From positions 1 to 24,056 of the forward strand of contig CAZYIM010000038.1 of the NCBI GenBank assembly GCA_964647565.1: DNA of 24,056 bases, in the 5' to 3' direction. A program made the translations under genes and the position numbers. The notes beneath the pieces were generated by a model. It was given only the letters and a program-made list of their open reading frames with translations, did not search any database and was not told where the DNA came from. The stretch is from an uncultured Methanosarcinales archaeon. GTDB taxonomy: Archaea > Nanobdellota > Nanobdellia > Woesearchaeales > CAZYIM01. This document shows, piece by piece, positions 1 through 7,722 of the stretch (position 1 is the stretch's first letter; every line of letters begins with the position of its first letter).

Positions 1-493
1 GGGGTCCGCCACTAATATGTTTTTCCAAATACCAAGAAGAAGGTTTACTAAGCCGTCTCAAACTATATACTCCCACTGAATTCGGTTTAATCTTAGATTT
101 CAGACCTGTCAACACAGGGTTAAACCTTTCTACAAATGCACATCCAATATTCAACTTCGACTTACAAGCATGATTCTCCATACGATATGCGTCATCAAGT
201 GAACGGGTCAAAGGCTTTTCAATCAAAAAATTTTTTGTCTGGTCCTTGTATTGTAAGAACATAGAATAATGCGCTGATGTAGGGACACAAATACTGATAA
301 CATCATAATTCCTATTATTATCGTCCCACTTGAAGAATTCCATCTTTGACAATGCTGACTCTTCAGATTTACCCTCTTGCTTAATCACAGGATCAATAAC
401 ATCAATCTTTGAGACCCTGTCATCAAGTGCATACATCTCAGCATGGGTTTTACCCATCAATCCGTATCCAACCACACATACTTTCAGATTCAT
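1..493 (-). CDS. Gfo/Idh/MocA family NAD(P)-dependent oxidoreductase, truncated by the window edge (not in ORF track)
   Basis: Manual translation from ATG at 493: MNLKVCVVGYGLMGKTHA...YDVISICVPTSAH...LIEKPL...CAFVERFNP...WYLEKHISGGP. It has the Rossmann GxGxxG, EKP, ERFNP and W..SGG motifs, an upstream AGGTGA SD and no stop before base 1. Confidence 0.92.
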   Translation of the reverse strand, partial: MNLKVCVVGYGLMGKTHAEMYALDDRVSKIDVIDPVIKQEGKSEESALSKMEFFKWDDNNRNYDVISICVPTSAHYSMFLQYKDQTKNFLIEKPLTRSLDDAYRMENHACKSKLNIGCAFVERFNPVLTGLKSKIKPNSVGVYSLRRLSKPSSWYLEKHISGGP

Positions 494-539
494 TTTTTTC
501 ACCTTTGAGCATACGAAAAGGTGCCAACAACCTTGTTGC

Positions 540-6352: not shown

Positions 6353-7633
6353 TTACCTCGTCCCCACTACCTTTTCAAAAATATTGATGAACTTTTGTGC
6401 AGCGTATGTAACATCATAACGCTCAGCCCTTTGCCGAACATATTTAGATTTTTCTTCATAGAAAGGTCTATCATCAAATAAACGTTGAATTTTCTGAACC
6501 AATTCTTCATTGCTACCAAATAAAAGACCACTCTCAGCACCCATTAGTTCAGGAAAACATGCGTAATTTGGGCAAAGGGTAGGTACATAACAGGCCATAG
6601 AATCCACTACACTCATGCTCCACAACGCAGAAGGTTTCATAGGTCCTATTGACAAATATGCATCTGCCACAGTCTTATAGTAATTATCCCGTTCTATTGA
6701 GTGTTGAACCTTGACAAAAGGAAGTTCAAGTATTTTCTTCTTGTTATTATCAACAGTTGGATCAAGTGCATCTCTTTCTTTTGACCTATTGGCGGTGGGA
6801 TTTGTCACAATTATCTCAAAGTCCTGCCTCACCCCATTATAGAAATCAGTCATAGCCTTAAAGAATTCATTAGGGCCATAATGGTTGTATAACCTATGGT
6901 TGAATAAAATGCGTTTTTTACCCCCCTGCTTAGAACCATGATCTTTTAAAGAGGAATCGACTTCATTTAACGATACAGGGGGAGGTATGGCTTTGAAATC
7001 TCCAGTTGTAGATGAAATCAATTTTTGAGCATTTCCAAGCAAGAGGTCTATACCGAAATTGCTACATATTATATTATAATCACTAACATAAATAGCTTCT
7101 ATCTGACGCATGAAAATTGGCAACCCAAGTCCCTTATTATCTAAGGTGTTGTCAAACCTTAAGCTGGATGGATATCGGGTCTCTTCAAGATTCACAAGCA
7201 TGTCATAGTCCAGTCCAATTCCATTCACACTAAAATGAAAGTGAGAAGGTTCAACAGGAAGATAATGAAAGTATGAGACTATTGGAATCGTTTTTTCTGG
7301 TAATAAGGTAGCTTCAAGCGCCCTGAAGTTTGATGCCTGCTCTGACTGGTTGACATAGATCATGTCAATGTCAGCTATTATCGGTTTAATCTTTGATTCT
7401 AGCTCCTTCCAGGGAAAATTAAACCTAGCTTCAAACTTGTTATGGCCGTAGTCTAACTCAAGGTTATGTATTCGATCATCTATTTTAGGCGTACCTGGGG
7501 GTGATATATAATAAAAATTCCAATCAGGCCTCTGTTTAAGTATTTCCCCCATCAGCAACTTCTGGAACACATAGCCACTGTCAGATTCCAGGTTGCTGAG
7601 ATTACTGACATTCAGCAGGCTCAATATGTTCAT
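6353..7633 (-). CDS. Atypical GT-B glycosyltransferase, first gene of the operon
   Basis: YFHY, ILFNHR, RQDF, and WSMSVVDSMACYVPTLCPNYACFPEL (S/D variant of the EX7E region). Start moved to ATG 7633 because the TATA box lies inside the track's longer GTG-start ORF. Confidence 0.85.
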   Translation of the reverse strand: MNILSLLNVSNLSNLESDSGYVFQKLLMGEILKQRPDWNFYYISPPGTPKIDDRIHNLELDYGHNKFEARFNFPWKELESKIKPIIADIDMIYVNQSEQASNFRALEATLLPEKTIPIVSYFHYLPVEPSHFHFSVNGIGLDYDMLVNLEETRYPSSLRFDNTLDNKGLGLPIFMRQIEAIYVSDYNIICSNFGIDLLLGNAQKLISSTTGDFKAIPPPVSLNEVDSSLKDHGSKQGGKKRILFNHRLYNHYGPNEFFKAMTDFYNGVRQDFEIIVTNPTANRSKERDALDPTVDNNKKKILELPFVKVQHSIERDNYYKTVADAYLSIGPMKPSALWSMSVVDSMACYVPTLCPNYACFPELMGAESGLLFGSNEELVQKIQRLFDDRPFYEEKSKYVRQRAERYDVTYAAQKFINIFEKVVGTR

Positions 7634-7655
7634 ATCGACGAAGAATACTATTAAA

Positions 7656-7663
7656 TTTATAAA
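7656..7663 (-). promoter_or_regulatory. Archaeal TATA box for the minus-strand operon
   Basis: TTTATAAA ending 23 nt before ATG 7633, with a purine-rich BRE-like sequence upstream; the same spacing recurs at other genes. Confidence 0.7.
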
Positions 7664-7722
7664 GATTGCCTTTTTAATCACTGAAAAGTCCTAACAAATT
7701 GGTGATTTCCTCGCCTGGCAAA

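Follow-up and report, generated by a model that had tools for sequence, protein, structure and literature searches.

The Operon and the Gene for the Lead Glycosyltransferase

The window analysed here is a 24,056-nucleotide stretch of DNA, the forward strand of contig CAZYIM010000038.1 (assembly GCA_964647565.1) from an uncultured archaeon placed in the order Woesearchaeales. Eight minus-strand genes, joined by 4-bp overlaps or by gaps of no more than 37 bp, run from position 7633 to the contig end as an operon. The first gene encodes a glycosyltransferase (GT), called the lead GT below, and is followed in order by the genes for a radical S-adenosylmethionine (rSAM) enzyme, a canonical GT of family GT4, a PNP_UDP_1 protein, a PIG-L-like protein, a DegT aminotransferase, an Obg/DRG-like GTPase and a GFO/IDH/MocA oxidoreductase (Table 1). 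The subject of this report is the lead GT, the family to which it belongs and the pathway that the operon may encode.

Table 1. Features of the operon, of the lead GT and of the adjoining regions of the window
Feature	Position	Strand	Evidence or remark
Lead GT, 426 aa; GT-B, rare divergent GT4-like family	6353..7633	−	Open reading frame (ORF), motifs, Pfam, AlphaFold2 (AF2) model, fold searches
LESDS motif of the lead GT	residues 15–19		
RFNF motif of the lead GT	residues 70–73		
YFHY motif of the lead GT	residues 121–124		
FNHR motif of the lead GT	residues 244–247		
RQDF motif of the lead GT	residues 269–272		
YY motif of the lead GT	residues 318–319		
WSMSVVDSM motif of the lead GT	residues 338–346		
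TATA-box-like TTTATAAA	7656..7663	−	Sequence only
rSAM enzyme, 338 aa	5331..6347	−	Pfam, AF2 model, fold search
Canonical GT4, 374 aa	4210..5334	−	Glycos_transf_1, 103.6 bits
PNP_UDP_1 nucleoside phosphorylase family I paralogue, ~236–250 aa	3495..4247	−	Pfam, NCBIfam
PIG-L/LmbE-like putative de-N-acetylase, 299 aa	2599..3498	−	AHSDDA and DH motifs; N-terminal extension of ~70 aa
DegT/DnrJ/EryC1 pyridoxal phosphate-dependent sugar aminotransferase, 390 aa	1430..2602	−	Pfam, 376.5 bits; PseC-like 2.9e-80, below the equivalog cut-off
Obg/DRG-like GTPase with C-terminal TGS domain, 297 aa	540..1433	−	4-bp overlap with the aminotransferase gene
GFO/IDH/MocA NAD-dependent oxidoreductase	2..502	−	N-terminal 167 aa only; the contig end cuts the gene
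ORF adjoining the operon, 259 aa	7759..8538	+	
ORF adjoining the operon, 259 aa	9128..9907	−	
ORF adjoining the operon, 114 aa	9956..10300	+	
Two large proteins, 788 and 431 aa	20301..24003	−	Ig-like, CARDB, NPCBM-associated and FixG_C-type domains

The ORF of the lead GT was called as 6353..7681 from a GTG codon, and position 7633 is an in-frame ATG. The family homologues in alignment A1, which holds 36 sequences with 29–64% identity to the lead GT, begin at the Met encoded by this ATG. Since the TATA-like TTTATAAA sits 30 nt upstream, its position fits the ATG start as well. TTTATAAA is a possible archaeal promoter of the operon, in which case a near-leaderless transcript would be implied.

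The first-pass annotation of this DNA had listed a string of motifs in the lead GT, standing in place of the usual GR..KG and EX7E motifs, and every one of them is found in the protein. Two details needed correction: the motif given as WS-x3-D-x-M is actually spaced WS-x4-D-x-M, and RQDF, although present, is not conserved as a motif, F272 alone being nearly invariant. D18, S19, K66, R70, W75, E98, Y121, H123, Y124, N245, R247, R283, R287, Y318, W338, S339, M340 and D344 are invariant in A1. Since most of the motifs are invariant across the 36 sequences, they are predicted to be functional signatures and more than chance resemblances. The Gly-rich N-terminal loop of GT4 enzymes takes the form SNxSNLE(A/S)DSG in the lead GT, with D18 and S19 being the invariant residues.

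The canonical GT4 donor motifs GRxxxxKG and EX7E are absent from the lead GT and have become NHRLYxHYG and S-x8-D. Alignment of the A1 profile with PimB' (3okc) places NhRLYehYG over SRLvprKG, so that R247 preserves the Arg of the GT4 motif, whereas the invariant Y252 takes the place of its Lys. S335...D344 fall on the E...E of EX7E in this alignment; S335 corresponds to the first Glu and D344, which is invariant, to the second, and the spacing is longer by one residue. An hhalign comparison with the neighbouring canonical GT4 likewise puts D344 over the second Glu. Since these profile alignments map the replacement motifs onto both sites, the earlier statement that they stand in place of GR..KG and EX7E was correct.

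Fold and Relatives of the Lead Glycosyltransferase

Pfam assigns Glycos_transf_1 (PF00534) to the lead GT with 32.0 bits, the cut-off being 26.4 (E 1.1e-7, for a 442-aa form of the protein), a weak match confined to the C-terminal part, and several members of the family have no Pfam match at all. No meaningful NCBIfam family was found for the lead GT, neither the MshA nor the BshA model being matched, and the ESM Atlas returned only generic clusters of GT families 1 and 4 and of rSAM enzymes. The AF2 model built on A1, with a predicted local distance difference test score (pLDDT) of 91.3 and a predicted template-modelling score of 0.90, has a complete GT-B fold of two Rossmann domains. The top Foldseek matches in the PDB, with E-values from 1e-16 to 1e-14, are a mycobacterial mannosyltransferase, sucrose-phosphate synthase, MshA, BshA, PimA, GlgM and PglA. 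A second structure search over 48,161 chains, independent of Foldseek, gave BshA (6n1x) with a Z-score of 34.0 and a root-mean-square deviation (rmsd) of 2.6 over 344 aligned residues, sucrose-phosphate synthase (6kih) with Z 33.8, PglA (8dqd) with 31.9, HepE with 30.8 and PimA with 30.5. BshA is also the best PDB sequence-profile match of A1 (E 1e-4). A match to TRAPP TCA17 (E 0.16) in a single-sequence PDB search was rejected as a chance match.

The lead GT resembles retaining GT4 enzymes of the BshA/MshA type, sucrose-phosphate synthase, PimA and PglA in its full-length GT-B fold and its C-terminal Glycos_transf_1 domain. It is only 12–16% identical to BshA, sucrose-phosphate synthase, PimA and PglA, and phmmer from the lead GT does not reach ordinary GT4s. 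The lead GT is predicted to be a soluble GT-B enzyme and belongs to a rare, uncharacterised offshoot of GT4. Since small-molecule GT4s and envelope GT4s (PglA, PimA and WaaG) are both top-ranked, the fold does not discriminate between these acceptor classes.

The motif string had also been said to match that of phage GTs found beside TET/JBP or hydroxymethyl-pyrimidine genes, and DNA had been named among the possible acceptors. Neither proposal is supported by the fold searches. T4 alpha-glucosyltransferase (AGT; 1y6f) ranks 28th, 11 Z below BshA (Z 23.0, rmsd 3.9, 333 residues aligned), and the nearest folds are ordinary GT4 enzymes, which are far closer to the lead GT. Both T4 AGT, which belongs to family GT72, and the lead GT have a GT-B fold with a C-terminal domain of the UDP-sugar type, but they have no sequence similarity, and the lead GT lies in neither a phage nor a hydroxymethyl-pyrimidine context. 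PDB searches gave no sequence match of the lead GT to T4 AGT, to the T4 enzyme BGT (GT63) or to TET/JBP-associated GTs. Within a library of viral protein models, the best matches are generic GTs of phages and giant viruses, the DNA alpha-GT models ranking 24th and 43rd. Among 2.9 million viral contigs of IMG/VR, 39 candidate stretches yielded two confirmed relatives, both partial.

The family of the lead GT is small. A word-indexed search found 48 proteins, and 240 cluster representatives out of 1.84 billion were found at E ≤ 1e-3 (131 at 1e-10 and 60 at 1e-30). There is one copy in the assembly, where other GT4s match over the last ~80 residues only, and in a sample of 250 further genomes of the same order no member was found at E ≤ 1e-30. 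A Pfam scan of 16 longer members revealed no informative fused domain. A maximum-likelihood tree of 35 members has two clades, each with a support of 100/99, and the clade of the window has 20 rows. Loci are numbered with the prefix L. The genome loci of the GT family described below come from the best 80 of 207 genome matches; many of their contigs are short, and the ORFs of high-GC actinomycete loci were called heuristically with a GC3 filter. A search of the full-text literature by pathway words, the family being nameless, was not exhaustive and found no account of this GT family or operon.

N-Glycosidase Genes Travel with the Glycosyltransferase Family

The gene set of the operon is syntenic in metagenome-assembled genomes (MAGs) of Woesearchaeota and Pacearchaeota (L001, L002, L003 and L018) and is also found in three metagenome contigs (L163, L167 and L176). 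The genes around it differ from locus to locus and include gyrB, the gene for ribosomal protein S3Ae, AsnC regulators and insertion sequence elements. Since the conserved set sits amid differing surroundings, the operon behaves as a self-contained, mobile and horizontally scattered cassette. No flippase, polyprenyl-phosphate GT or oligosaccharyltransferase gene was found in or beside any archaeal operon copy scanned.

In L003, L018 and L167, a Nuc_deoxyrib_tr (PF05014) gene for a protein of 146 aa fills the slot that the window and L002 use for the PNP-like gene, and five of the seven archaeal-type operons sequenced past the GT4 gene carry an N-glycosidase there (two PNP, three PF05014). A PF05014 gene also lies directly upstream of the family GT in L169 and L178 (the latter the same as L192). 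A third N-glycosidase gene, LOG (PF03641), sits right upstream of the GT in two Curtobacterium loci (L012 and L036), in the actinobacterial locus L014 and in L184 (the same as L201), and is found inside a verrucomicrobial MAG cluster of the order LOG-DegT-GFO-B12/rSAM-SHMT-like-GT-GFO (L015) and inside a cluster of Coleofasciculus (L011). Five bacterial lineages have a LOG gene adjoining the GT. The LOG-GT pair is followed by an MFS exporter in L014 and L036. After removal of copies at least 95% identical, the linkage of N-glycosidase and GT is seen in 13 distinct loci and involves three families. The linked loci that could be placed in the tree (eight rows) all fall in the clade of the window, where they are spread over at least four subclades.

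The N-glycosidases that travel with the GT family look functional from their sequences. The LOG motif PGGxGTxxE is intact in four of the five proteins aligned, and the archaeal PF05014 proteins have a GxHxExGWA core in common, and 28% identity, with one in a bls-like Streptomyces cluster. The PNP-like gene of the window is an additional paralogue and the most divergent of the four PNP_UDP_1 genes in the assembly, scoring 71 bits against 154, 111 and 105. Its product matches S. solfataricus MTAP with 6.8e-23 and uridine phosphorylases with 1.7e-23; the Gln/Arg pair that binds uracil in uridine phosphorylases is replaced by Met/His, and an Asp aligns with that of the 'VSDN' sequence of the MTAP. 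Since three N-glycosidase families travel with one GT family, cleavage of a nucleoside or nucleotide would belong to the pathway.

The Radical-SAM Neighbour

The rSAM enzyme has its CxxxCxxC motif at residues 18–25, with the core CxxxCxYC, and C-terminal cysteines (C244, C262, C264 and the C295/298 region) for an auxiliary cluster. The best match of its AF2 model (pLDDT 92.2) among the 48,161 chains is BlsE (7vob), with Z 23.5 and rmsd 3.3 over 295 aligned residues covering the full length, followed by SkfB with Z 20.9 and anSME with 18.9; MqnE has Z 11.9. Foldseek places SkfB first and BlsE second. An hhalign comparison of the rSAM family profile with a BlsE-like Streptomyces protein gives a probability of 97.4% over 248 columns, the C-terminal Cys motifs included. 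Identification as viperin was rejected, the PADLOC pVip score of 44.5 bits being weak and comparable with those of many other rSAM models. There are 25 close homologues of the enzyme, one of which (P0214, 565 aa) is fused to a HAD-family phosphatase; this fusion hints at a phosphorylated substrate.

Other Genes of the Operon

The best NCBIfam models for the canonical GT4 are MshA (1.3e-24) and BshA (1.8e-21), both below their cut-offs (86.8 against 462.5 and 76.5 against 273.7, respectively), and a Pfam scan of the window found no MshC/BshC-like gene, the Cys ligase partner, in the operon. The canonical GT4 and the protein of L178:7834-8454 pass the Pfam cut-off of PF20706, 'Family 4 glycosyltransferase in conflict systems'. 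The PF20706 score of the window's protein is 43.7 bits against 103.6 bits for Glycos_transf_1, and the match probably reflects generic GT4 similarity.

The PIG-L-like protein of the window scores below the cut-off of PF02585 (E 0.0033), and its orthologues in L002, L003, L018, L163, L167 and L178 score 27.8–49.4 bits. The truncated oxidoreductase matches the NCBIfam model of archaeal UDP-GlcNAc 3-dehydrogenase (GlcNAc, N-acetylglucosamine) with 7.9e-21, and full-length orthologues are present in L002 and L003. The GTPase has orthologues in L003:11229-12113 and L167:9260-10123, both between the GT and rSAM genes; the three proteins are 287–297 aa long and all have an MMR_HSR1 domain, and the TGS domain was detected in the window's copy only. 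Other GTPase paralogues in the assembly are 29% identical. A translation-type GTPase within a sugar-tailoring operon is unusual and could be a partner of the rSAM enzyme or provide ribosome-related self-protection.

Comparison with Blasticidin S and Other Nucleoside Pathways

BlsD and MilC join UDP-glucuronate to free cytosine, BlsE takes the product, and the core motif of BlsE is CxxxCxMC (PMC3715490), compared with CxxxCxYC in the rSAM enzyme of the window. AgmA of the angustmycin pathway is an AMP phosphoribohydrolase that supplies adenine (PMC12648386). Since BlsD, BlsE and AgmA set these precedents, base release, attachment of a new sugar and tailoring by rSAM enzyme and aminotransferase are an established logic. 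The operon resembles the core of the blasticidin S and mildiomycin clusters in having an N-glycosidase, a GT, a twitch-type rSAM enzyme and a DegT aminotransferase side by side, as in BlsM/MilB, BlsD/MilC, BlsE/MilG and BlsH. By analogy with this four-role clustering, the lead GT may work like a BlsD, although the clustering does not show BlsD identity.

The differences are also clear. Beyond the bls set, the operon has a GFO oxidoreductase, a second GT (the GT4), a PIG-L deacetylase and a GTPase, it has neither an arginine aminomutase gene nor peptide-ligase genes, and its host is a DPANN-type archaeon whereas blasticidin is made by Streptomyces. A comparison of the lead GT with BlsD/MilC, as the first-pass annotation had proposed, was made with candidates assigned by gene order. 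PF05014 was searched for in 301 genomes of the genus Streptomyces, 28 of which had a match, and 30 regions of up to 20 kb were taken around the matches. They include bls-like clusters with a 339-aa rSAM protein, a second rSAM, DegT, MFS and PF05014. The BlsD candidates, L148:7579-9021 (480 aa) and L149:7837-9168 (443 aa), lie upstream of the BlsE-like gene and have no Pfam family. The A1 hidden Markov model (HMM) did not match these two proteins even with --max at E ≤ 100, hhalign of A1 with a BlsD-position protein gave a probability of 0.3%, and the HMM found nothing at E ≤ 10 in the 30 regions. Homology to BlsD was thus not borne out by either HMM or hhalign with these gene-order candidates.

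The LOG-GT pairs (L012, L014, L036 and L184) resemble the angustmycin pathway in placing a nucleotide N-glycosidase beside a sugar-attaching enzyme, but the base of angustmycin is re-attached by an enzyme of the phosphoribosyltransferase type, not by a GT-B enzyme. A relationship to tunicamycin synthesis (TunB/TunD/TunE) was considered and dropped, the homologue loci of Streptomyces and Actinosynnema having no rSAM or PIG-L neighbour. The first-pass annotation had read the motifs of the lead GT, together with the nucleoside phosphorylase, as a sign of a nucleoside or glycosylated-base metabolite. With the PNP, PF05014 and LOG partnerships and the BlsE-like rSAM enzyme, the idea of a nucleoside-type metabolite has gained independent comparative support and is partly supported.

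A Possible Nucleotide-Derived Amino-Sugar Pathway

By analogy with these pathways, the leading explanation is that the operon makes a small amino-sugar glycoside and that the lead GT serves as a small-molecule GT on this nucleotide-derived route. We place the probability of this reading at roughly 0.45. In the first step, an N-glycosidase would split a nucleoside or nucleotide into a free base and ribose phosphate. This enzyme would be the divergent PNP in the window, the nucleoside-deoxyribosyltransferase-like hydrolase in the sister operons and the LOG phosphoribohydrolase in bacteria. The lead GT would then couple a nucleoside diphosphate-hexose to one of the fragments. The free base is favoured by analogy with BlsM, BlsD, BlsE and BlsH and would give a hexopyranosyl nucleoside; the likelihood of ribose phosphate is almost as high, and this acceptor would be better matched to GT4-type chemistry. 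The BlsE-like rSAM enzyme, the GFO oxidoreductase and the DegT aminotransferase would next deoxygenate or oxidise the sugar and then aminate it. Finally, the canonical GT4 and the PIG-L-like deacetylase would add GlcNAc and convert it to glucosamine (GlcN). Such pairing of a GT4 and a PIG-L protein for GlcN is known from the mycothiol, bacillithiol, aminoglycoside and glycosylphosphatidylinositol pathways.

A small nucleotide-derived acceptor is given slightly less than even odds, shared about equally between the base and a hydroxyl group of ribose phosphate or of the nucleoside. The four-role blasticidin parallel and the minimal LOG-GT(-MFS) cassettes speak for the base. A hydroxyl of ribose phosphate or a nucleotide is favoured by the structural neighbours that use phosphorylated or anionic acceptors, namely sucrose-phosphate synthase, MshA, GlgM, OtsA and BshA.

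Several observations weigh against this pathway. All close folds of the lead GT are those of retaining GT4/GT20 enzymes, which would imply an alpha-linkage, and known hexopyranosyl nucleosides are beta-N-glycosides made by inversion. Phosphatase genes are found in related clusters (HAD in L048 and L213, His_Phos in L034 and L078, PHP in L017 and L190), and together with the conserved K66, R70, R283 and R287 they argue for an acceptor that carries phosphate and against a bare base. The lead GT does not appear from the sequence comparisons to be a BlsD homologue, and if it does the same job, this would be a case of convergence. The link between the rSAM enzyme and BlsE is suggestive, not decisive, since the sequence profile alone ranks SkfB, anSME and MoaA above BlsE (7vob, eighth at 1.4e-9); the structural margin of BlsE over SkfB is only 2.6 Z. 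Operons of the L001/L163 type have a second rSAM/SPASM gene in the N-glycosidase slot, and for about 8 of the 21 genome loci of clade II the available sequence contains no N-glycosidase. No exporter or obvious resistance gene is present in the archaeal operon, and the acceptor of the lead GT is read from the gene context.

Wider Contexts of the Family

Of the 21 genome loci of clade II that were examined, 14 have an rSAM gene no more than two genes away from the GT, and 12 have an aminotransferase gene (DegT or class III) near it. The other clade of the GT family is characterised by a strongly conserved cassette of the GT, a 234-aa protein, a 405-aa protein, Glyco_tranf_2_4, an AAA_33 kinase and an FkbM methyltransferase. 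Over 50 actinomycete loci (L023-L080, including L034 and L078; also L021) carry it next to a divergently oriented HTH_31 regulator. The 234-aa and 405-aa proteins have no Pfam family. The cassette adjoins, in some genomes, Mrr or DpnII-type restriction enzymes, DUF4365, STAND NTPases and a relaxase.

A further cassette is found on one strand of four metagenome contigs (L168:364-4533, L170:389-4584, L177:110-4607 and L171). Its order is the family GT, a group-II-intron-like reverse transcriptase (RT) of ~250 aa with an intact YSDD, a 5'-3' exonuclease and a second Glycos_transf_1 GT of ~430 aa, to which L177 adds an HD/YfbR-like 5'-deoxynucleotidase. The family GTs of this cassette are 36–41% identical to that of the window and 50–78% to each other, and the RTs are 48–74% identical. 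The cassette may be a system related to nucleic acids or defence.

Three other metagenome contigs (L200:5848-10184, L202:4790-10890 and L216:6560-10028) have the family GT between an upstream gene for an EPSP-synthase-like enolpyruvyl transferase and a downstream asparagine-synthase-like gene, with a carbamoyltransferase or ABC ATPase gene nearby. We take the pairing of enolpyruvyl transferase and carbamoyltransferase to resemble uridine-nucleotide antibiotic pathways. Since many partners of the GT family handle nucleotides, the broad nucleotide idea of the first-pass annotation stays alive at the level of the family.

Outside the operon, the three adjoining ORFs of the window (Table 1) have no Pfam, NCBIfam or PADLOC family and no tblastn counterpart in the sister loci. 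The two large proteins near the far end of the window are probably surface proteins, unrelated to the operon.

Alternative Explanations

Two alternatives are unlikely but have to be weighed against the nucleotide-derived pathway. The product could be a pseudo-oligosaccharide or aminocyclitol-type small molecule with no nucleobase, like mycothiol, bacillithiol, an aminoglycoside, calditol or a hopanoid-cyclitol head group. The GT4 and PIG-L proteins would make a GlcN-glycoside, the rSAM enzyme would oxidise or ring-contract it, and the N-glycosidases would clear by-products, either 5'-deoxyadenosine from the rSAM enzyme or UMP or uridine from the GTs. A GT4 with a PIG-L protein is the hallmark of MshA/MshB, BshA/BshB and the transfer and deacetylation of GlcNAc in aminoglycoside synthesis, and the second GT has its best NCBIfam similarities to MshA and BshA. 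The PNP-like protein matches MTAP as well as uridine phosphorylases and keeps the purine-type Asp, and the relatives in Nostoc and candidate phyla radiation (CPR) bacteria are accompanied by genes for GT2, B12-rSAM, class-III aminotransferase and deacetylase, a set that we take to resemble HpnI/J/K/O. However, LOG and PF05014 enzymes act on 5'-phosphorylated nucleotides (LOG, BlsM and MilB), and since these are their substrates, they would be poorly suited to the clearance of 5'-deoxyadenosine. The minimal LOG-GT(-MFS) cassettes of L012, L014 and L036 contain no rSAM gene at all, and Pfam scans found neither an inositol-phosphate synthase nor a 2-deoxy-scyllo-inosose synthase in any operon.

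Equally doubtful is an ordinary envelope or protein-glycan pathway, in which GFO, DegT and PIG-L would remodel UDP-GlcNAc to a diamino sugar, the GTs would build the oligosaccharide of an S-layer, N-glycan or glycolipid, and the PNP gene would be incidental. GFO/DegT pairs are typical of UDP-2,3-diamino-sugar synthesis, and the partial GFO matches the UDP-GlcNAc 3-dehydrogenase model and the DegT protein a PseC-like one at the values given above. PglA, PimA, HepE and WaaG are among the fold neighbours of the lead GT, and JGI auto-names of its homologues read 'glycosyltransferase involved in cell wall biosynthesis'. The gene content of the archaeal loci argues otherwise: in none of them does the operon contain or adjoin a gene for a flippase, a polyprenyl-phosphate GT, an oligosaccharyltransferase or a membrane protein, and a slot filled by three unrelated N-glycosidase families, with 13 linked loci, is hard to call incidental. 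The absence of the GT family from all 250 same-order genomes sampled is unlike a core envelope function, and the related bacterial clusters, with carbamoyltransferase, MFS, thioesterase/PP-binding and AMP-binding genes, look like those of secondary metabolism.

Glycosylation of DNA or RNA bases by the lead GT in the style of T4 or of TET/JBP-associated GTs, perhaps for defence or anti-restriction, is highly improbable. The GT-B fold common to T4 AGT and the lead GT, the TGS-domain GTPase in the operon, the pairing of a family GT with RT and exonuclease in four metagenome contigs and the proximity of the actinomycete branch to restriction enzymes and STAND NTPases can be cited in its favour. 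Against these stand the low ranks of T4 AGT and of the viral DNA alpha-GT models and the scarcity of relatives in viral contigs described above. PADLOC gave no match for the lead GT or for 10 other proteins. No TET/JBP, thymidylate-synthase, dCMP/dUMP hydroxymethylase or phage gene was found in the window or in about 45 neighbourhoods scanned, the first two being named in the first-pass annotation as neighbours to look for. PF00303 (ThyA) is absent from the 87%-complete assembly, and the PF12851 (Tet_JBP) profile had no match there, its control matching in no genome either. According to Pfam, the operon of the window has no hydroxymethylase, TET/JBP, DNA-binding or nuclease gene, and the partners of the lead GT are sugar-tailoring enzymes typical of small-molecule pathways. 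The lead GT does not look like a DNA-modifying enzyme, and there is nothing in the window's own operon that points to DNA.

A route by adenosyl addition like that of HpnH/HpnG or MqnE/MqnB, in which the rSAM enzyme would add a 5'-deoxyadenosyl radical to an unsaturated sugar, the PNP would remove adenine and the GTs would decorate the remaining C-linked ribosyl group, a high-carbon sugar, has very little to commend it: the PNP_UDP_1 gene adjoins the rSAM and GT genes, the HpnG model matches weakly (2.9e-5) and MqnE is among the structural matches of the rSAM enzyme, but BlsE, SkfB, anSME and viperin resemble this enzyme much more than MqnE does, and neither the LOG and PF05014 partners nor the rSAM-free LOG-GT cassettes fit such a route.

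Implications

A bolder version of the nucleotide-derived pathway would have the operon as a mobile cluster of DPANN archaea (Woesearchaeota and Pacearchaeota) for a blasticidin-like hexopyranosyl nucleoside, in which an unrelated, remodelled GT-B family has converged on the role of BlsD. By this account, which we consider improbable as a whole, the embedded DRG/Obg-like TGS GTPase could serve as ribosome-associated self-protection, and the whole GT family would be dedicated to nucleotide-derived acceptors, including the cassettes with LOG, with PF05014 and with RT, exonuclease and HD-nucleotidase.

To our knowledge, specialised metabolism is almost absent from episymbiotic DPANN archaea. If the hexopyranosyl-nucleoside reading is true, the operon would represent the first pathway of the nucleoside-antibiotic type in Archaea. 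An eight-gene operon for a nucleotide-derived amino-glycoside would be rare in DPANN archaea, and hosts or competitors could be the targets of its product. With the lead GT, a rare family of GT-B enzymes is defined in which the textbook donor motifs of GT4 have been lost. This family is repeatedly found with rSAM enzymes and three N-glycosidase families in archaea, CPR bacteria, cyanobacteria and actinomycetes. Identification of the acceptor would bring a new type of reaction to GT-B enzymology and aid the mining of nucleoside-like natural products.

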